From an uncultured Rikenellaceae bacterium (GTDB lineage: Bacteria > Bacteroidota > Bacteroidia > Bacteroidales > VadinHA17): 64,000 bases of DNA. A model generated the notes under the pieces. It was not told the DNA's origin. It was given only the letters and a program-made list of their open reading frames with translations, and searched no databases. The translations under genes and the position numbers were made by a program. Below are positions 56,027-63,889 of the stretch, piece after piece (the stretch's first letter is position 1; every line of letters begins with the position of its first letter). The stretch is taken from NCBI GenBank assembly GCA_963802145.1, contig CAWDHN010000012.1, forward strand, positions 291,567-355,566, in the 5' to 3' direction.

Positions 56027-58003
56027 ATGAATAAACTGTTAATCCTCATATTCTCACTGATCGTATTACTTCCTGCTGCTCTCAGCGCGCAGAAACAAAA
56101 AACGGAGCGTGCTTATTCAGCCTATGAGGCAGGCAGTTACTATGAAGCCATAGACCTCTTCAAGGATGTCTACTCGAAGACGCGTGATAAGCAGGTAAAG
56201 GCTGAGATGGTGTTCATGGTATCAGAATGCTACCGCCTGATCAATGATCCCAAGAATGCCGAGTTGTGGTACAAGAGAGCCGTGAAGTCGGCATTCCCCA
56301 AACCGGAGGCTCAGTACTGGCTTGCCGAGAGTACCAAGAAGCTGGGCCGTTATCCGCAGGCTATCGAGGAGTTCAGAAAATACCGGCAGCTTGTCCCTGG
56401 TGACCCGCGTACCGAACAGCAGATAAGAGCCTGTGAGCTGGCCATGGAATGGCAGGCCTCTCCTGAATCATACAATGTTGAAGAGCTGAAAGATGTCAAC
56501 TCCAGGGACTCTGACTTCAGTCCCTCCTTCGGCCGCGATGACTATGGCCTCTTGTGGTTCACCTCATCGCGTGACGACGCCCAGGGCAATAAGGAGCACG
56601 GAGCCACCGGACAGAGTTTTACTGATATATTCGAGACCCGGCTTGACAAGAAGGGCAAGTGGAGCACCCCCGTGCCGGTTGATTACCTGAACAGTGAGTT
56701 TGAAGACGGTACCCCTTCGTTCTCCTCTGATTTCACCGAAGTATATTTCACCCGCTGTGAGGCAGGCAAGCGCGAGAAAAAGGGATGTGTGATAATGTAT
56801 TCGTCACGCGAGGGCACGCGCTGGTCAGAACCGCAAAAGCTGGAATTGCTTGCAGACTCGCTGGTAGCTGCTCACCCAGCCCTCTCTCCAGACGGACAGA
56901 CACTCTATTTTGTCTCCGATATTCCAGGCGGACTGGGTGGAAAAGACATTTACAGGGCCAGCCGCACCTCTCCGGGCAGCCCGTGGTCACGCCCAGAGAA
57001 CCTCGGAACGGACATCAACACAAGGGGTAATGAGCTCTTTCCCTTCGTCCGTCATGACGGAACCCTCTATTTTGCGTCTGACGGTCACATAGGCATGGGA
57101 GGACTTGACCTGTTCAGGGCGGTACCACAGTCGGGCAGCGGATGGATAGTTCAGAATATGAGACCACCGATAAACAGCCCGTCGGACGACTTCGGCATCA
57201 CCTTCGAACGGGATGCCGAGAAGGGCATCTTCAGCTCATCACGCAAGGGCAGAGGTGTTGATGACATGTATACCTTCGAGATGCCTCCGCTGCTGTTCAG
57301 CATAACGGGCCTCGTCAAGGATGAAAAAAGCGGACAGCCCGTCCAGGGCGCCACCGTTCAGCTCATTGCCAGTGACGGCGCCAACATGCAGACTGAGACA
57401 GGCAATGCCGGCGACTTTAAATTCAGCCTGAGGCCGGAAGTTGATTATATCTTCCTGGCATCCAGGAAGGGATTCCTGAACGGGAAAGAGAAAGAGACAA
57501 CCAGGGGGCAGGACAAGAGCCGCGAATTCATGGCTACCATCCTGCTGACACCGATTGACAGACCCATCGAGCTGCCGAATATCTTCTACGACTTCGGCAA
57601 GTGGGACCTGCGTCCGGAATCGATGGTCTCGCTTGACAAGCTGGTGGAGACACTGAATGACAACCCGAACGTGACCATCGAGCTGATGTCGCACACCGAC
57701 TCGCGTGACACGGAGGAGTTTAACCTCGATCTTTCCCAGAAGAGGGCACAGTCGGTTGTTGACTACCTTATCGGCAAAGGAATCGCCGCTGACAGGCTGA
57801 CAGCCAGGGGATACGGTGAGACCAGCCCGAAGATTGTGGATGCGGCAATCATGCAGGACGCACCCTTCCTGCGCTCCGGAGCCACACTCAGCGAGCAATA
57901 CATCAATTCTCTCGCCAGCGACGAACAGAAGGAGATAGCCCACCAGATCAACCGCCGCACTGAGTTCAGGGTCATGAGAACTGACTATGTTCCCGCACAA
58001 TAG
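56027..58003 (+). CDS. OmpA-family outer-membrane/peptidoglycan-associated protein (TPR, PD40-like repeats, carboxypeptidase-regulatory-like domain, OmpA C-terminal domain)
   Basis: Signal peptide. TPR-like N-terminus. PD40-like segments (PALSPDGQTLYFVSD, VRHDGTLYFASDG). OmpA_C domain (NIFYDFGKWDLRPES, LMSHTDSRDT, LSQKRAQSVVDYL, NRRTEFRV). Confidence 0.85.
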   Translation: MNKLLILIFSLIVLLPAALSAQKQKTERAYSAYEAGSYYEAIDLFKDVYSKTRDKQVKAEMVFMVSECYRLINDPKNAELWYKRAVKSAFPKPEAQYWLAESTKKLGRYPQAIEEFRKYRQLVPGDPRTEQQIRACELAMEWQASPESYNVEELKDVNSRDSDFSPSFGRDDYGLLWFTSSRDDAQGNKEHGATGQSFTDIFETRLDKKGKWSTPVPVDYLNSEFEDGTPSFSSDFTEVYFTRCEAGKREKKGCVIMYSSREGTRWSEPQKLELLADSLVAAHPALSPDGQTLYFVSDIPGGLGGKDIYRASRTSPGSPWSRPENLGTDINTRGNELFPFVRHDGTLYFASDGHIGMGGLDLFRAVPQSGSGWIVQNMRPPINSPSDDFGITFERDAEKGIFSSSRKGRGVDDMYTFEMPPLLFSITGLVKDEKSGQPVQGATVQLIASDGANMQTETGNAGDFKFSLRPEVDYIFLASRKGFLNGKEKETTRGQDKSREFMATILLTPIDRPIELPNIFYDFGKWDLRPESMVSLDKLVETLNDNPNVTIELMSHTDSRDTEEFNLDLSQKRAQSVVDYLIGKGIAADRLTARGYGETSPKIVDAAIMQDAPFLRSGATLSEQYINSLASDEQKEIAHQINRRTEFRVMRTDYVPAQ

Positions 58004-58030
58004 CAGCGGAGGAAGATCTTCATAACCATC

Positions 58031-59200
58031 ATGACTGACAGGTCACGTTACGCAAAAAGAGGTGTCTCATCCGGCAAGGAGGAGGTGCACGCCGCCATCA
58101 GCAGTGTTGATAAGGGACTCTTCCCTCGGGCATTCTGCCGGATCAATCCGGATTTGCTGGGCGGAGACCCCGCGTGGTGCAATATCATGCATGCTGACGG
58201 CGCAGGTACCAAGTCATCACTGGCATATGTATACTGGAAGGAGACGGGAGACATATCCGTATGGAAGGGTATAGCCCAGGATGCCGTGGTGATGAACCTC
58301 GATGACCTACTCTGCGTCGGGGTAACGGATAACATCCTCCTGTCATCTACCATTGGAAGGAATAAAAACCTTATCCCCGGCGAGGTTGTCAAAGCCCTCA
58401 TTGAGGGTACCGAAGAGTTCCTCAGCCGGATGAGGGATGAGGGGATAGGAATATGGTCCACCGGAGGAGAGACGGCTGATGTGGGCGACCTGGTCAGGAG
58501 TGTCATTGTCGATTCCACGGTCACTGCCCGCATGCGGAGAGCCGATGTCATTGACAATGCGAATATCAGGCCGGGTGATGTGATCGTAGGGCTGGCCTCC
58601 TTCGGCCGGACAAGCTACGAGAAGAGTTATAACGGAGGCATGGGCAGCAACGGGCTCACCTCGGCACGGCATGATGTCTTTCATAAATATCTGGCAGCAC
58701 TTTATCCTGAGAGTTTTGACCCGGCTGTGCCAGGATCACTGGTTTATTCCGGCAGCATGAAGCTCACTGACCCGACATCTGTGCCGGGCGTGAATGCCGG
58801 GATGCTGGTACTGTCACCAACACGCACCTACGCCCCGGTGATAAGAAAGGTGCTTGAGGCGATGAGACCTGCCGTGCACGGTATGGTGCACTGCTCCGGA
58901 GGAGGGCAGACCAAGGTCCTTCACTTCATTGACAGGATGCACGTCATCAAGGACAACCTCTTCCCCGTTCCTCCGCTGTTCGATCTCATCCAGAAGAGCT
59001 CCGGCACACCCTGGGAGGAGATGTACCGTGTCTTCAACATGGGTCACCGTATGGAACTGTATGTTGATGAAGCGGATGCTGCGGCAATCATTGAAATTGC
59101 CTCCGGTTTTAATCTTGAAGCACAGATCATCGGTCGTTGCGAATCTTCCCCTTCCGCTAAACTTACAATACGAAGCGGGGTTGGGGAATTCCGCTACTAG
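58031..59200 (+). CDS. purM: Phosphoribosylformylglycinamidine cyclo-ligase (AIR synthase), Bacteroidota long form
   Basis: 389 aa. YAKRGVSSGKEEVHAAI, IMHADGAGTKSSLAYVYWKETGD, DDLLCVG, STGGETADVGDLVR. Closely resembles the Bacteroides PurM as I recall it. Confidence 0.85.
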   Translation: MTDRSRYAKRGVSSGKEEVHAAISSVDKGLFPRAFCRINPDLLGGDPAWCNIMHADGAGTKSSLAYVYWKETGDISVWKGIAQDAVVMNLDDLLCVGVTDNILLSSTIGRNKNLIPGEVVKALIEGTEEFLSRMRDEGIGIWSTGGETADVGDLVRSVIVDSTVTARMRRADVIDNANIRPGDVIVGLASFGRTSYEKSYNGGMGSNGLTSARHDVFHKYLAALYPESFDPAVPGSLVYSGSMKLTDPTSVPGVNAGMLVLSPTRTYAPVIRKVLEAMRPAVHGMVHCSGGGQTKVLHFIDRMHVIKDNLFPVPPLFDLIQKSSGTPWEEMYRVFNMGHRMELYVDEADAAAIIEIASGFNLEAQIIGRCESSPSAKLTIRSGVGEFRY

Positions 59201-59283
59201 TCCTCAGTCTTCAGTCTTCAGTCTTCAGTCCTCAGTCAATCAGCATGTTACGACTGGTGACTGCCGATTGCCGACTGCCGACT
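59199..59283. repeat. Heptad-periodic interrupted hairpin element, copy 1
   Basis: Left arm 59199-59237 is (AGTCYTC)x5.5. The loop is about 59238-59249 (aatcagcatgtt). Right arm 59250-59283 is (CGACTGS-like)x5. Each heptad offers CAGTC/GACTG pairing (5 bp) separated by 2-nt mismatches. It starts at the purM stop codon. Confidence 0.85.
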
Positions 59284-59404
59284 TATCCTCCCCTGCAATC
59301 TGGCTGCTCGCGGCCATGACCCACTGGGTCATTGCTCTCCGCTCGCCCCTCTATTGACTATTGCCTTAGAATAATTACCTTTGCAGCCTGAAATTTGGCA
59401 AGTA

Positions 59405-60490
59405 ATGGCAAATAATCTTATTCTTGAAAGGCTCCTGGGAGTGAAGAAGCGCTTTGTCGAAGTCGGCGAACAGCTGAACTCACCTGAAGTGATGTCTGAC
59501 ATGAAACGTTATATCAGGCTGAACAAGGAGTACAAGGAGCTTAAGCCCGTGGTGGAGTCTTATGAGAGATACAAGAGCGCTATTGACAACCTCGAGAGCG
59601 CAAGGGCGCTGCTGGCAACAGAGAAGGACGAGGAGATGCGCGATATGGCAAAGGCAGAGATAGATCAGCTTGTCAACGCCATCCCCGACATGGAGGAGGA
59701 GATCAGGTATCTGCTGCTGCCGGCCGACCCGGAGGACGACAAGAATGCAGTGATAGAAATACGTGCCGGCACCGGAGGCGATGAGGCCAGCATATTCGCC
59801 GGGGACCTCTTCAGAATGTATTCCAAGTACATTGAAGCGCGGGGTTGGAAGCTTGACCTGAACTATTTCACCGAAGGCACTGCAGGCGGTTACAAGGAGA
59901 TAGTCTTTGCCGTCCTGGGCGATGGCGTATACGGGATAATGAAATATGAATCGGGTGTGCACCGTGTTCAGAGGGTACCCCAGACCGAGACCCAGGGACG
60001 CATACACACCTCCGCCGCCACCGTGGCCGTGCTGCCCGAGGCAGGCGAGTTTGACATTGAGGTGCGCAGTGAGGATATCCGGAAGGATACTTACTGTTCT
60101 TCAGGACCGGGCGGACAGAGCGTAAACACCACCTATTCAGCAATAAGGCTGACACATGTACCAACAGGCATCGTTGTTACATGCCAGGATGAGAAGTCGC
60201 AGATCAAGAACCTCGAGAAGGCGATGAAGGAGCTGCGCACGCGTCTTTATAACCTCGAGTACCAGAAGTACCTCGATGAGATCTCGCAGAAGCGCAAGAC
60301 GATGGTCTCCACAGGCGACCGGTCGGCCAAGATAAGAACCTACAACTATCCCCAGGGAAGGGTGACCGACCACCGCGTAAACGTGACCATCTATAACCTG
60401 CCGGTGGTGCTCGACGGTAACATCCAGGAACTGCTCGACAAACTGCAGATGGCAGAGAATGCCGAGCGTCTGAAGGCAAGCGATTATTAA
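59405..60490 (+). CDS. prfA: Peptide chain release factor 1
   Basis: GGQ motif ([11 protein letters not shown]). RF1-type codon-recognition region ([23 protein letters not shown]). I prefer the ATG at 59405 ([10 protein letters not shown]) over the TTG at 59381. Confidence 0.95.
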
Positions 60491-60500
60491 TAACCCCCTT

Positions 60501-61328
60501 ATGCTCTCAAAAGAAATCTTTCAGCACATACTGGAAAAAAAGTCCTTCCTCTGTGTGGGGCTTGATCCTGAAATATCCAGACTGCCTGCTTGCATTGCCG
60601 GTGCAGATGATCCCATATTTGAGTTCAACAGGCGGATAATCGATGCCACTCATAAATATACCGTGGCATACAAACCCAACTTTGCCTTTTATGAGTCTTA
60701 TGGTCCCAGGGGGATGGCGGCACTTGACAAGACTGCGAGATATATTAACAAGCTGGATACCAATATATTCATCATCGCTGACGCAAAGCGTGGCGACATT
60801 GGCAACACGTCGAAGATGTATGCCAGGGCAGTTTTCGGCGAGATGCCGTTTGATGCCGTCACTGTAGCTCCTTATATGGGAGAGGATTCAATAACGCCAT
60901 TCCTTTCGTACCCCGGAAAATGGGCGGTAATCCTGGCCCTCACCTCCAACAGGGGCGCCGATGACTTTCAGTACCACACCGACAAGGGTCAGAGGCTGTT
61001 TGAGAGGGTGCTTACAATAACCCAGAGATGGGGAACCCCGGACAATATGATGTATGTTGTCGGAGCCACCCGTGCGGAGATGCTCGCCGATATCCGCAAG
61101 ATAGTTCCGGATCACTTCCTCCTGGTGCCGGGAGTTGGCGCGCAGGGCGGCAGCCTGGAGGAGGTAGCCCGTTACGGCATGAACAAAACCTGCGGATTGC
61201 TTGTGAATTCCTCACGCGGGATCATCTACGCTGACAGTACCGAACGGTTTGCGGAAGTCGCCGGGCAGAAGGCCCGCGAGATGCAGGAGGAGATGGCGGT
61301 CTACCTGGCAGAGAGGTTCAAAATCTGA
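60501..61328 (+). CDS. pyrF: Orotidine-5'-phosphate decarboxylase (type 2, long form)
   Basis: 275 aa. [52 protein letters not shown]. Confidence 0.9.
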
Positions 61329-61338
61329 AGGTCTATAA

Positions 61339-61481
61339 AGTCCTCAGTCTTCAGTCTTCAGTCTTCAGTCTTCAGTCCACAGTCTTCAGTCCTCAGTCTT
61401 CAGTCTCAGTTAATCAATTAGTTACGACTGCCGACTGCCGACTGCCGACTGGTTTTGACTGCCGGCTGCTGACTGCCGACT
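61339..61481. repeat. Heptad-periodic interrupted hairpin element, copy 2 (longer)
   Basis: Left arm 61339-61409 has about 10 heptads of AGTCYTC. The loop is about 61410-61424 (ttaatcaattagtta). Right arm 61425-61481 has about 8 heptads of CGACTGC-like sequence. The architecture and the loop-flanking sequence (..cagtc..aatca..gttacgactg..) match copy 1. The right arm and loop overlap the last 20 codons, including the stop codon, of the minus-strand MFS ORF. Confidence 0.85.
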
Positions 61482-62723
61482 AACCTCCACCGCCACCATC
61501 CTTCTTATCGGAGGAATCAGAAGAAATGCAGCGATGCCCAGTGAGGCAATACCGCTGCCCGAGATGATGAAGGCGTTTCCTATCCCTATCGTGTCAGCAA
61601 TATACCCTGTTGCCAGAAGTCCGATCATGGAGGGGAGCAGAGTCACGCTCGAATAAAGGGAGAATACCCTTCCCAGAGCTGCCGGTTCAACCATTGTCTG
61701 CAACACAACCGTGAATGAACCTGAATAGAGCGTCATCGTGATACCCCCTATGGCAGTGATTCCCGCGAAAATGGCGAAACCTGACGGAGGCAGCAGTCCG
61801 GAAAAGATAAAAGTGAGGCCCAGGATCAGGTAGGTCATATTGATGAGAACAACCTTGTAGTTATTAAGACGTCGGTGACCGATTATCGCACCTCCGATGA
61901 GCATTCCTATTCCCCAGGCTATCTCGACAATGCTCATCATGTATGTTGTGCCGCTGAAGTGGTCAAGTGTCATCAGCGGGAAGAGCGCTGCAACAGGCAT
62001 TATAAAGAACATGGCTGAAAGGGCCAGGATGAAGAGCCACAGCAATCCCGGCTTGCTGTATATCTCCCTCAGTCCCTCCATCAGTTCCCTGACAAGATGC
62101 GGTTTGGCAGATTCGGCTCTCTCCGGGTCGGGGATGTGAACCATAAGCAGTGTTGTAACCGCAATAAGTGCCCCGGCGACGTCAATCAGCAGGATCCACT
62201 GGAGCTCGAAGAGGCTTATCAGCAAGGCAGCCAGGGCAGGGCTGGCTATAGTGCTGACCGACTGTATCATGTTGTTGATCCCTGCTATCCGCATCAGCTT
62301 GTCCTGCGGAGCAAGCAGGGGCACCGAAGCCTGCATGGCGGGGACATGGAATGCCATCCCGGCAGAGCGCATCATCAGAAGAAGGTAAACATAGAAGATC
62401 TTCGGTTCTGTAATCCAGAAAAGCGAGGCAAGCACCAGGGTGCACAGTGCAATGAAGAGATCTGCGAATATCATTGTCCGCTTGCGGTTCCAGCGGTCGA
62501 CAAACACACCGGTGAATAGTCCCAGCACCATCTGCGGCAGGAGGGATGCTATGGTGGCATAGGCCAGTACCTCAGCCGACCTGGTCTCAACGCTCAGCCA
62601 GAATATGACGGCATAAGCCACCACATAGCTGCTCAGTGTCGAGAACAGCTGACCGGTGAAGATTATTGCAAATACCTTTTTCCAGTCAGACATGCTGCTT
62701 TTCAATTTATATCGCACTGTCAA
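61422..62723 (-). CDS. MFS transporter (efflux-type, 12 TM)
   Basis: 433 aa and highly hydrophobic. MFS loop motif (GVFVDRWNRKRTM). The C-terminal tail VSRQSAAGSQNQSAVGSRQS is encoded by the heptad repeat. Confidence 0.78.
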   Translation of the reverse strand: MTVRYKLKSSMSDWKKVFAIIFTGQLFSTLSSYVVAYAVIFWLSVETRSAEVLAYATIASLLPQMVLGLFTGVFVDRWNRKRTMIFADLFIALCTLVLASLFWITEPKIFYVYLLLMMRSAGMAFHVPAMQASVPLLAPQDKLMRIAGINNMIQSVSTIASPALAALLISLFELQWILLIDVAGALIAVTTLLMVHIPDPERAESAKPHLVRELMEGLREIYSKPGLLWLFILALSAMFFIMPVAALFPLMTLDHFSGTTYMMSIVEIAWGIGMLIGGAIIGHRRLNNYKVVLINMTYLILGLTFIFSGLLPPSGFAIFAGITAIGGITMTLYSGSFTVVLQTMVEPAALGRVFSLYSSVTLLPSMIGLLATGYIADTIGIGNAFIISGSGIASLGIAAFLLIPPIRRMVAVEVSRQSAAGSQNQSAVGSRQS

Positions 62724-62851
62724 TGCAAATAAGAGAACACAAATATAGTCTCTTTTGTTCCCGGCAGGTCAGGCTGCGCTGCAAAGCAGCAATATCAAAT
62801 CCGTCGTTCCGGCCTCCGGATTTCGCATTTTTTTTCGATAATTCGGGGTAA

Positions 62852-63889
62852 TTAACGGGAAATGACTGACTGAAGTGATCTGATCTCCAGTTCATCAAGC
62901 AACCTGTATATATAATAATAGCCATCACCCCCCCTGTAACAATTTTCCATCTTGTTCTTTACTGTTGCGTCATCAGGGGTTTCAAAAACCATTATCTGAA
63001 TAGCTGAGCGAGGCAGGTTCATGTTCCAGTATTCGGGAGAAGACCGCATTACAGGAGTTCCGTTTTTAACCGGAACAATTCTGTAAACACTCTCAGGATT
63101 ACCGAAATAGGCATAACTATCCTTCTCCTCTTCCGTAAAGCCGGACAATTCTTTGTTCAGCATGGGTACAAATACATCTGACTGACTCTTATCGGGCACA
63201 CATTTCCAGTAATTGATCAGAAGCCGGTATGCTTCACGGATGGTCACCTGTTCCCAGTAGGGAGGCCGGTCAGGGTTATATATGACATAAGTGTCACCGT
63301 AACGGTCTATGCCCGGTGTGATAGTCTCCCTGATACCCGGCTGGTAAAAGAGCTCATTCACCTCAACGACAGCACTTCTCATCGCCTCTTCGCTGAAGTC
63401 CTGATTTGTCGGATTATATGCATTGCTGAAATCAGACTCATTGAACCCGTTGTCGCGGTACTTGTCAGTCATGTTAATCTCCATCCTCCATTGCGGAGGT
63501 TCAATAATCCATTGCGCCTCCTTCCCCTTGTAAAGGCTCCATGTGCGAAGGTAAAAGGTGAGTGTCGAAGGCACTCCGAATCCATATTTCGAGCTGTAAC
63601 GGCCCGCACCGAGGTCGCAATCTGCATCAAAGCCTTTTATCTCCTTCAGTACCGGGCACTGCCGGAAAATATGCACAAGCTCTTCAAGCTCATTCATTGC
63701 TGCCTCCGCCTCAGAAGCACTGAAATTGCTCTCCTTCCCGTAAAGATCCATTGACAGCCCATTGAGAATCCCCTGCCTGATCCTGAATGTCCCGGGCTTT
63801 TCAGTGAGAAGAACTTTGTCCTGGGCCCTGACAGGCTGAATAAGAACAACCAGCAGGATGACAAAAACGGTTCGGCTGATACTGCTCAT
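62852..63889 (-). CDS. Secreted hypothetical protein
   Basis: 345 aa with a Sec signal peptide (VFVILLVVLIQPVRAQ). I recognise no family. The start ATG overlaps the stop of an upstream partial ORF (ATGA). Confidence 0.45.
   Translation of the reverse strand: MSSISRTVFVILLVVLIQPVRAQDKVLLTEKPGTFRIRQGILNGLSMDLYGKESNFSASEAEAAMNELEELVHIFRQCPVLKEIKGFDADCDLGAGRYSSKYGFGVPSTLTFYLRTWSLYKGKEAQWIIEPPQWRMEINMTDKYRDNGFNESDFSNAYNPTNQDFSEEAMRSAVVEVNELFYQPGIRETITPGIDRYGDTYVIYNPDRPPYWEQVTIREAYRLLINYWKCVPDKSQSDVFVPMLNKELSGFTEEEKDSYAYFGNPESVYRIVPVKNGTPVMRSSPEYWNMNLPRSAIQIMVFETPDDATVKNKMENCYRGGDGYYYIYRLLDELEIRSLQSVISR

Follow-up and report, generated by a model that had tools for sequence, protein, structure and literature searches.

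A dispersed foldback repeat family of paired heptamer arrays at gene ends in an uncultured Bacteroidales genus

Two similar stretches at the ends of purM and pyrF in the genome of an uncultured Bacteroidales bacterium raise the question of which kind of element occupies these sites. They are located at 59199-59283 and 61339-61481 of the window, the whole 64-kb stretch of DNA that was analysed. Both are real copies of one family. The best explanation, with a probability of roughly 60%, is a dispersed non-coding foldback repeat family of one genus of uncultured Bacteroidales, named Rikenellaceae in some records, that is mainly selfish or neutral. The family is undescribed until now and belongs, as a new form, with the intergenic repeats of the REP/BIME type; it does not constitute a separate system. 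This agrees with the initial annotation, which had not recognised a described family: Rfam gave no match at E≤1 in 58000-63000, and the arm sequences did not occur in the literature searched.

Both copies share the layout (CAGTCYT)n, a 14-nt tip and (GACTGCC)n on the plus strand. Tandem-repeat finding (TRF) bore out the design described before, a heptad run, an A/T-rich loop and an opposing heptad run, at both sites, and the position at gene 3' ends was also confirmed. The left arm of copy 1, (AGTCYTC) ×5.6 at 59199-59237, overlaps the purM stop codon TAG (59198-59200). It is followed by the tip AATCAGCATGTTAC at 59238-59251 and a right arm of 4.7 GACTG-type heptads at 59252-59283 (GACTGGT, GACTGCC, GATTGCC, GACTGCC, GACT). 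Copy 2 begins 11 nt past the pyrF stop codon TGA (61326-61328) with a left arm of (AGTCYTC) ×10.4 at 61339-61411. Its tip is AATCAATTAGTTAC at 61412-61425. The right arm at 61426-61481 consists of three GACTGCC units, GACTGG, TTTT and then GACTGCC, GGCTGCT, GACTGCC and GACT; TRF located the interrupting GGTTTT at 61451-61456. The two arm patterns had 12 and 9 matches in the window, with 0.15 and 0.40 expected from shuffles, and were absent from the window outside the two copies. A minus-strand MFS reading frame runs into copy 2: its last ~19 residues are encoded by the right arm, and its TAA stop (61422-61424) is supplied by the complement of the tip.

Copy 1 has a second repeat module beside it, at 59287-59366 on the plus strand, with the hairpin ATGACCCAcTGGGTCAT followed by CTATTGA/CTATTGC units. 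This module is a separate dispersed family and a frequent neighbour of heptamer arrays. The sequence TACCTTTG upstream of prfA (59376-59383, plus strand) is conserved in all orthologous spacers of the genus and forms the right-hand boundary of the variable purM-prfA slot. It fits the Bacteroidetes -7 promoter box, TAnnTTTG.

The family comprises ~40 loci in the 3.7-Mb genome (G000), 25 of them two-armed, with element lengths of 50-240 nt. Each unit combines a slippage-prone (CAGTCYT)n microsatellite, the conserved 14-nt apex AATCAA-N4-TTAC and (GACTGCC)n, and the arms keep one order and one orientation relative to the tip. The (GACTGCC)n arm is the more degenerate of the two and punctuated by frequent GGTTTT/GATTTT insertions held in the 7-nt register. 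At least 56 copies, from nine species, carry a 24-nt tip-plus-core motif; the reversed control matched once or not at all. Tips with up to two mismatches numbered 16 in G000, 19 in G012, 8 in G042, 5 in G005 and none in most congeners. Among 185,579 species genomes, the tip with its flanking cores was restricted to this genus group, apart from one stray match. The tip was absent from the viral contigs searched, which leaves phage carriage unsupported. Arrays of period 7 are frequent in the genome (190, compared with 28 for period 6 and 24 for period 8). The same intergenic slots are filled by several heptamer foldback families, of which the CAGTCYT family is one. Several contigs end inside such arrays. 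The arm unit itself, (CAGTCYT) ×3.7 or longer, occurred in at least 120 contigs of many phyla. Its reversed control heptamer also reached at least 120, so that the cross-phylum spread is uninformative and was rejected as a signal.

Elements are confined to a limited set of spacers adjoining stop codons. The stop codon upstream lies at a median of 11 nt from the element, and the start codon downstream at a median of 64.5 nt. Convergent spacers, 18.7% of the spacer length, hold 16 of the 42 intergenic copies (P=0.0025), and divergent spacers are depleted with 3/42 (P=0.010); these context statistics rest on gene calls from a crude custom ORF caller. In G000 alone, 6 copies were co-oriented with transcription and 15 anti-oriented (P=0.078). 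With relatives added, the counts were 14 co and 20 anti (P=0.39), no significant preference, and a strand-specific RNA role was therefore dropped. Element orientation did not agree with local GC skew, and a replication-strand bias was likewise rejected.

Strains differ in the length of the left arm. The CAGTCYT arm of copy 1 has 3 or 5 units. Five versions span copy 2, and their CAGTCYT arms count 8, 9, 10, 10 and 13 units, with CCT, CTT and CCA units shuffled. The right arm is invariant in the strains compared for copy 1 and constant in length for copy 2. Slippage, proposed in the initial annotation, is supported by a comparison of strains with identical PyrF, where the length changes are whole heptads and confined to the CAGTCYT arm. 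The short arrays at the gpsA and pgi slots showed no length variation. Between sister species the turnover of slots is very fast, as seen at 6-12% flanking divergence. In orthologous spacers the element can be absent, inverted, nested, decayed or swapped for another heptamer foldback. The purM-prfA spacer measures 207 nt here and 36-43 nt in G005, G012, G046 and G009. At the gpsA slot, the element has the opposite orientation in G005 and G019. Three element slots of G012 hold foldbacks of the AAATCGC family in G000, and the pyrF slot of relatives contains related AAAGTCNN units, the first of which aligns with the start of copy 2. Two unlinked loci, C9:134905 and C12:548789, have ~80 near-identical nt in common, including a derived tip variant, and unrelated flanks. 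No target duplication was found at these loci or at the filled versus empty purM-prfA site. Whole units are thus copied between loci, and the arms then lengthen or shorten by slippage.

The apex provides the argument for an architectural DNA site, in which an HU/IHF-family protein would bend the duplex apex and the arrays would serve as wrap or partner sites, a counterpart of RIB/RIP (BIME-1). The 'A/T-rich loop' of the earlier description is a conserved motif. Its pattern AATCAA-N4-TTAC, in a Bacteroidales host, matches the proteobacterial IHF consensus WATCAANNNNTTR as stated in PMC10380432. The match is perfect in 40 of 56 tips, among them that of copy 2; copy 1 has one mismatch, and its tip in other strains, AATCAACATGTTAC, has none. 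The four positions with the lowest information content over the 56 tips are exactly the N4 of WATCAANNNNTTR. The one tip position left free in the search pattern was an A in 52/56, and a search with the arms only reproduced the conservation pattern. The tip thus reads like a putative site for a DNA-bending protein and recalls BIME-1/RIB of E. coli, whose linker carries an IHF site at the 3' ends of transcription units according to the account in PMC3333891. The lack of an orientation preference is expected at the DNA level, two HU/IHF-family genes are present, and for Geobacter, too, paired heptamer/octamer arrays have been suggested to be IHF/HU sites (PMC2700814). Several points count against this reading. 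Neither HU-family gene reaches the NCBIfam equivalog cut-offs for IHF and HU, both are also present in congeners without the tip, and no candidate binder of the Bacteroidetes HU_rel type (TIGR01201) was above the cut-off. No sequence-specific IHF is known from Bacteroidota. The match was recognised post hoc, with an estimated chance of ~4e-4 for an AT-rich 14-mer before correction for the many motifs that could have been matched. Tips decay at orthologous sites. The abundant foldbacks of the AAATCGC family contain ATCAA centrally but not the full motif. A genome-wide IHF-type regulon was rejected: of 131 consensus matches, 72 were intergenic (~28 expected from composition), but most lay in AT-rich DNA and only ~10 in array tips. 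An architectural role of the apex is possible, if doubtful, and is compatible with a copied foldback family.

Host-selected RNA structures are another candidate. The elements would act as bidirectional terminators and/or exonuclease-protective 3'-end hairpins, and the periodic loops would block RNase III and palindrome instability. Predicted folds had 5 paired and 2 unpaired bases in every heptad, and the mismatches, U/C on one strand, are G/A on the opposite one, as previously claimed. The RNA of copy 1 has minimum free energies of -31.3 (plus) and -34.9 (minus) kcal/mol with z-scores of -3.9 and -3.8 versus shuffles; copy 2 has -53.1 and -62.0 kcal/mol with z-scores of -5.6 and -6.5. All 25 two-armed genomic copies gave strong predicted RNA folds (mean z -4.7/-4.9). 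Neither of the refuting conditions set in the initial annotation came true: there are many further genomic copies, and folding exceeds that of shuffled sequence. Its expectation of a stronger structure in the minus orientation was weakly supported. In copies 1 and 2, minus-strand RNA is modestly more stable by energy and not clearly so by z-score. Over the 25 two-armed copies, the G/A strand had the lower energy in 18 (mean -45.2 versus -40.4 kcal/mol), but the z-scores are equal. As single-stranded DNA, copy 1 reached a z-score of only -1.8, and weak DNA hairpins beside strong RNA hairpins suit an RNA function. So do the proximity to stop codons, the convergent enrichment and the lack of canonical terminators at the purM and pyrF ends, where no terminator-like site was found in 58800-61900. 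Neither copy has a GC-rich uninterrupted stem with a U tract; only copy 2 has U4 after its interrupted stem, where an inner hairpin (-26.4 kcal/mol, z -4.9) precedes GGUUUU. Orthologous slots usually keep some foldback despite a change of family. However, in the closest relatives the purM-prfA spacer is empty and spans just 36-43 nt. The two arms do not match in length, and strains vary freely in this respect. Around the same tip, the arms of locus L043 in the relative G044 pair only 4/7, and the family occupies only ~40 of ~2000 gene ends. A hairpin apex with two A-U pairs closing an N4 loop would account for the variability of N4. It leaves the conserved AATC and AC, which are unpaired, unaccounted for and was rejected as an explanation of the tip. 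Selection of the RNA structure by the host is unlikely as the main cause.

Mobilisation in trans would make the elements REPINs or MITEs, driven by a RAYT (Y1) transposase or by an IS with ends that match the arms. Whole-unit copies at unlinked loci, the patchy presence among congeners and an orthologous site that is empty in the nearest relatives fit this idea. REPINs and IS200/605 relatives insert without target duplications, as seen here. The only PF01797 gene of G000 (Y1_Tnp, RAYT; C8:32904-33248) is flanked by a different REP, CCGTAGGCCATTAAGTATTGTAG / CTACAATACTTTAAC, and a link to this RAYT was rejected. Y1_Tnp was undetected in the family-rich G012, G042 and G007, whose genomes are 75-94% complete. 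G000 has no autonomous or split-tip master copy and none with an internal gene. Terminal inverted repeats beyond the arrays and target-site duplications were also not found, and a non-exhaustive IS screen revealed no related autonomous IS. Mobilisation by such a transposase is improbable. Independent microsatellites born in place by slippage, with coincidental hairpin potential and a coincidental common loop, are hardly credible: the genome-wide period-7 excess from several unit families, the arm unit in many phyla and the AAAGTCNN units aligned with the start of copy 2 point that way, but the phylum spread says nothing either way given the equally widespread control, and the 24-nt motif in nine species, the fixed arm arrangement and the near-identical 80-nt copies contradict it.

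The copied, mainly selfish or neutral foldback family thus remains the preferred reading. Its members would be tolerated where promoters are undisturbed. The periodic 2-nt mismatch was probably inherited from the founder, with the two arms homogenised separately, and may persist because it combines a weak DNA hairpin with a strong RNA hairpin. The apex may be conserved because copying, or a host bender of the HU/IHF type, requires it, by analogy with BIME-1/RIB. Any effect of the 3'-end hairpin on transcripts would be a side benefit that works in either orientation. Candidates for the copying route are transposition and ectopic gene conversion; no mobilising enzyme for the family was found. 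As a counterpoint, slots that keep interchangeable foldbacks could mean that the host needs a 3'-end hairpin, which would be function and not junk.

A more far-reaching combination joins three statements: a genuine HU/IHF-family bending site at the apex, elements as RIB/RIP counterparts and 5+2 arms as a selected design. Together these are unlikely to hold. If true, a phylum with no characterised IHF would have an IHF-like sequence-specific activity, and the 5+2 arms would give a strong RNA hairpin in either orientation and a DNA palindrome too weak for instability. In practice, the elements break metagenome assemblies, give rise to protein tails encoded by the repeat, as at the MFS C-terminus, and are easily taken for structured RNAs.

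Among the long simple repeats of bacteria, those with heptamer units are the most common and are still unexplained; the STRR of cyanobacteria are heptanucleotide simple-sequence repeats. Bacterial heptanucleotide arrays also include LSSR (Mrazek et al. 2007, as summarised in PMC4679880), TAACTGA repeats (PMC4679880) and GGGAATC/GGGGAYT repeats (PMC4692102). Like these, the present arrays have tandem 7-nt units in excess over other periods, are intergenic, near stop codons and rare between divergent genes, and show strain-variable unit numbers and a patchy phylogenetic distribution. Those repeats are described as direct arrays, and for TAACTGA a single indirect repeat is on record. In the present family, two different units invariably face each other in inverted orientation around a conserved non-repetitive apex, the whole unit is copied and there is no G-quadruplex potential. 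The Geobacter metallireducens arrays of classes 1-3, termed 'putative global regulator (IHF/HU) binding sites' (Aklujkar et al. 2009, PMC2700814), are closer: 4-5 tandem 7-/8-nt units are paired on opposite strands, multicopy and species-specific. Heptamer arrays paired on opposite strands therefore have precedents in the literature. The Geobacter units (GTTGCTYN, MTYCTGA and others) belong to a different phylum, the distance between halves is variable and no conserved apex was reported. IHF/HU binding was proposed there without a test, from extra ihf/hup genes and not from a motif match.

MITEs are likewise small, non-autonomous foldback DNA, intergenic and strain-variable, and may alter 3' UTRs or gene ends. 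One of them, the Correia element of Neisseria, carries an IHF site. Unlike MITEs, the present family has no IS terminal inverted repeats, no target-site duplication and no autonomous relative found. To our knowledge, REP/BIME-type elements are well studied only in Proteobacteria. The family shares their extragenic position and the preference for 3' ends and convergent spacers, but its unit is not a single imperfect palindrome of 20-40 nt in hundreds of copies. In the REPIN-RAYT system, REP doublets are mobilised by a domesticated Y1 transposase (PMC3333891, PMC2817692). Short hairpin doublets, duplicative spread without target duplication, lineage restriction and intergenic position are common to both; unlike in that system, the RAYT of this genome resides in its own REPtron with an unrelated REP, and the family is abundant where Y1_Tnp is undetected.

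In BIME-1/RIB-RIP of E. coli and other enterobacteria, an L linker that carries an IHF site separates two inverted REPs (Boccard & Prentki 1993, cited after PMC3333891). The present family has no sequence homology to it, and the arms here are tandem heptamer microsatellites with 5/7 complementarity instead of single 35-nt REP palindromes. Copies number ~40 and not hundreds, and the family has no link to the RAYT of the genome. The IHF site is putative, read from the motif in a host phylum without a characterised IHF. Like BIME-1, the elements are extragenic at 3' ends of transcription units, their inverted arms flank a conserved centre that fits the IHF consensus at the level of a sequence match, and they are mosaic with other modules, strain-variable and capable of forming RNA hairpins. 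In this family, heptamer microsatellites form the arms of an oriented unit that is copied as a whole and has a conserved apex; its dynamics are measurable at the strain level, and the apex fits the consensus of a known DNA-bending protein.

We consider the heptad hairpin elements to be a genus-restricted variant of the intergenic mosaic repeats of the REP/BIME kind, built of slippage-prone heptamers and copied as units. Copy 1, after purM, has a left arm of 5.6 AGTCYTC units (59199-59237), with the first heptad overlapping the purM TAG stop (59198-59200), a 14-nt tip AATCAGCATGTTAC (59238-59251) and a right arm GACTGGT GACTGCC GATTGCC GACTGCC GACT (59252-59283). Copy 2 begins 11 nt past the pyrF stop with 10.4 units (61339-61411), followed by the tip AATCAATTAGTTAC (61412-61425) and a GACTGCC arm to 61481 with a GGTTTT interruption at 61451-61456 (TRF). 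Within the 64-kb window, arm patterns were confined to these copies; 12 and 9 matches were counted, where shuffled sequence would give 0.15 and 0.40. Re-reading of arms, tip and coordinates bore out the sequence description of the initial annotation. Rfam had no match to the copies. An MFS transporter ORF on the minus strand extends into copy 2 (61422-61481). The GACTGCC arm encodes its last ~19 residues, and the tip contributes its TAA stop (61422-61424, minus strand). In the congener G005, the final five residues of the MFS protein are encoded instead by another heptamer array, (AAGAATT)n. Repeats thus supply the C-terminal tail, which is species-specific.

The genome containing the window (G000; 3.72 Mb, 13 contigs) was scanned for clustered CAGTC/GACTG pentamers. 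The search for further copies was positive, with about 40 loci, 25 of them two-armed. The arms keep a fixed order of (CAGTCYT)n, tip and (GACTGCC)n, in either chromosomal orientation. The GACTGCC arm is frequently the longer one, and GGTTTT/GATTTT punctuation keeps the 7-nt register. Tandem arrays of period 7 are in striking excess in G000, numbering 190, compared to 28 and 24 arrays of periods 6 and 8. AAATCGC and AAAATCG top the list of units (88 arrays), and the two units of the CAGTCYT/GACTGCC family come next (46 arrays). The AAATCGC family likewise forms foldbacks with one homogeneous and one degenerate arm, complementary at 6/7 positions; one or two mismatches per heptad are therefore a recurring design in this genome. 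These foldbacks (e.g., C10:163538-163608 and C6:156371-156456) span ~60-85 nt, with homogeneous (GATTTGC)n opposite a fixed degenerate AATCGAC AATCGAA AATCTGA AATCGAA and ATCAA in the centre. A second dispersed repeat, cctgcaatctggctgctcgcggccATGACCCAcTGGGTCATtgctctccgctcgcccctc, lies directly 3' of copy 1 (59287-59366). Copies at 89-96% identity are located at C10:94206, C10:463387 and C6:141867 of G000, and many congeners have it as well; its RNA fold reached a z of just -1.6 to -2.0. CAGTCYT or GACTGCC arms contain an in-phase, nested 52-nt module of two hairpins, TTTGAGGCTCCGACTCAGGAGGAGACTCAA TCCCGTACACGCAGTGTCGGGAC, at the extracted loci L040, L054, L057, L059, L063 and L067 (G012/G005) and at G005 C1:~210700. 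Its presence at the pgi slot differs between G000 and G005.

The arm pattern was found in 13 of the 24 other congeneric species genomes sampled (0 to 78 matches per genome) and is nearly absent outside the genus. The tip was searched together with flanking cores (CAGTCAATCA-N4-GTTACGACTG, at most two mismatches). G000 has 16 matches, G012 19, G042 8 and G005 5; five other congeners have one to three each, the remaining congeners none, and a reversed control gave one match. Among one genome per species (185,579 species), the exact tip form was restricted to Bacteroidales MAGs of the group of G000, some labelled Rikenellaceae, and one Zooshikella contig. It matched 15 metagenome contigs and no viral contig. 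The arm unit alone occurred in many phyla among the matches listed, and this spread is uninformative because a reversed control heptamer was as widespread among the matches listed.

Genomic context was evaluated with a crude in-house gene caller (2972 genes in G000, 89% coding). Convergent spacers hold 16 of the 42 intergenic copies, compared to 18.7% of the spacer length (P=0.0025), and divergent spacers are depleted, with 3/42 (P=0.010). Copies in tandem spacers lie a median of 11 nt from the stop upstream and 64.5 nt from the start downstream. Convergent enrichment and stop proximity agree with the location at gene 3' ends first proposed from the two copies. Elements would be tolerated beside stop codons, where no promoter would be disrupted.

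Predicted RNA folds of both copies form, on both strands, a ladder of 5-bp steps with 2x2 internal loops in between, as proposed before with five base pairs and a 2-nt mismatch per heptad. The simplest source of the periodic mismatch would be a founder with two separately homogenised arms. Copy 1 folds at -31.3 kcal/mol on the plus and -34.9 kcal/mol on the minus strand (z -3.9 and -3.8), copy 2 at -53.1 and -62.0 kcal/mol (z -5.6 and -6.5). As RNA, all 25 two-armed genomic copies fold better than their shuffled versions (mean z -4.7 and -4.9). The initial annotation had expected a stronger structure on the strand with G/A mismatches; agreement is modest, with this strand stronger in 18/25 copies (mean -45.2 vs. 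-40.4 kcal/mol) at the mean z values just mentioned. As single-stranded DNA the hairpins are marginal: -11.6 and -13.4 kcal/mol for copy 1 (z ~ -1.8, centroid mostly open) and z -2.7 and -2.9 for copy 2. A weak DNA hairpin combined with a strong RNA hairpin may explain the survival of the arms. A host function as a putative bidirectional 3'-end hairpin is possible. A strand-specific RNA role is disfavoured. Compared with the direction in which the upstream gene is transcribed, 6 elements in G000 are co-oriented and 15 anti-oriented; with the loci of relatives added, 14 vs. 20 showed no significant preference (P=0.39). The gpsA slot also argues against such a role, with the element in G000 oriented opposite to that in G005 and G019. 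Element orientation showed no correspondence to local GC skew in G000.

Orthologous spacer positions (slots) differ in their element state between species; slots persist and their contents are swapped. A conserved TAcCTTTG (59376-59383), which we take to be a -7 promoter box of the Bacteroidetes type, is located ~20 nt 5' of the prfA ATG and, across the 29 spacers compared, is kept in almost all congeners. The purM stop is 207 nt away from this box in G000, compared to 36-43 nt in the closest relatives G005 (93% identity), G012 (88%) and G046 and also in G009. Farther congeners fill the slot with other foldbacks, (GGCAGTA)n...(TATTGCC)n among them, and with the hairpin module of 59287-59366; in G012 this module sits in the pyrF-MFS slot. 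Most species have a (CTATTGC)n array directly next to the prfA -7 box, at the position expected for the -33 element, so heptamer arrays may supply part of a promoter. The pyrF-MFS spacer carries the CAGTCYT/GACTGCC family in G019 and G041 and AAAGTCNN arrays in G005, G012 and G046. In a syntenic comparison of G000 and G005 over 60 kb (~94% identity), one G005 slot is empty, a second holds the element inverted, a third has an 8-nt tip insertion, and in a fourth the arms around a conserved centre are replaced. Another slot holds a decayed or different foldback, and one the arm-nested 52-nt module. AAATCGC-family foldbacks in G000 occupy three slots of G012 elements. Tips decay at orthologous sites: a perfect G000 tip is present at 1 of 14 tip-bearing loci of relatives that have an identifiable G000 orthologue.

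The loci C9:134905 and C12:548789 share ~80 near-identical nt of arm-tip-arm, including the derived tip variant AGTCAATAAGTTAC. They are located on different contigs in opposite orientations, with unrelated flanks and no target-site duplication. Therefore, whole units have been copied, via transposition or ectopic conversion. In two copies (G000 C10:1093145-1093253 and G012 C24:6390-6427) the tip is reversed relative to the arm types, the expected product of recombination between inverted arms (loop flip). Mobilisation by a RAYT was rejected for the heptamer family: the sole Y1 transposase gene of G000 (C8:32904-33248; locus L076 1000-2100) is flanked in a REPtron arrangement by arrays of a different, classical REP, CCCTTGGCCGTAGGCCATTAAGTATTGTAG, and Y1_Tnp was not detected in the family-rich G012, G042 and G007. 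Blocks of this REP adjoin heptamer foldbacks elsewhere, including a 440-nt block at C12:170520-170960 that is missing from G005. No split tip or master copy was found in G000.

A PyrF identical to that of the window is encoded on eight contigs from other assemblies (ENA ERZ781235-43, SRR5468105-7, JGI 3300045961). The left arm of copy 1 in these strains comprises 3 or 5 heptads with differing C/T patterns, and the tip is AATCAACATGTTAC; from the right arm onwards the sequences are identical. The strain of the window thus carries an A-to-G change in the copy 1 tip. The left arm of copy 2 has 8, 9, 10, 10 and 13 heptads in five element-spanning versions with shuffled CCT/CTT/CCA units, and its right arm is constant in length. 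Several strain contigs terminate within arrays. Where the arrays are shorter, at the slots of gpsA and pgi, strains differ only in the 2-nt spacers. Heptad counts that vary beside an identical PyrF confirm the slippage suggested from the unequal arm lengths, and slippage acts mainly on the long homogeneous CAGTCYT arm.

Loop position 6, free in the search, is an A in 52 of 56 tips, and position 10, specified in the search, is the least conserved. Low information is limited to the four positions 7-10. A search with arms only found a tip-like loop at 13/19 sites, with a conserved AATCAA, four variable bases and a conserved TTAC. A stem-loop in which an N4 loop is closed by two A-U pairs would account for the variable centre, not for the conserved unpaired AATC and AC. 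The tip pattern is that of the IHF consensus WATCAANNNNTTR (PMC10380432), a proteobacterial consensus. This match was recognised post hoc. Perfect matches to the proteobacterial consensus were found for 40/56 tips, including copy 2; copy 1 deviates at a single base. Other intergenic matches in G000 are mostly in AT-rich DNA. G000 encodes two HU-family proteins (C5:189049-189312 and C12:541665-541931), which scored equally, under the cut-off, against IHF and HU models; no protein exceeded the cut-off for HU_rel. The C12 protein has RNI in place of the RNP motif, which usually carries the intercalating proline in HU and IHF proteins. HU-family proteins are not restricted to tip-bearing species. 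The tip at the apex is probably either required for copying or bound by an HU/IHF-type protein.

The element sequences were absent from the literature searched. Heptamer LSSRs (Mrazek 2007, as cited in PMC4679880), TAACTGA repeats, some in Bacteroidetes (PMC4679880), GGGAATC repeats close to stop codons (PMC4692102) and paired heptamer/octamer arrays of Geobacter, for which a role as IHF/HU sites was a guess (PMC2700814), are known. The CAGTCYT/GACTGCC unit is not described in these works, the first as far as covered by the citing article. Our analysis adds the motif at the apex, heptad counts for individual strains, the turnover of slots, evidence that units are copied and a negative RAYT test. 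The tip, a centre with the IHF-consensus pattern between inverted arms, resembles the L linker of E. coli BIME-1 (RIB/RIP), which, as summarised in PMC3333891 citing Boccard & Prentki 1993, has an IHF site between two inverted REPs and is located at 3' ends of transcription units.
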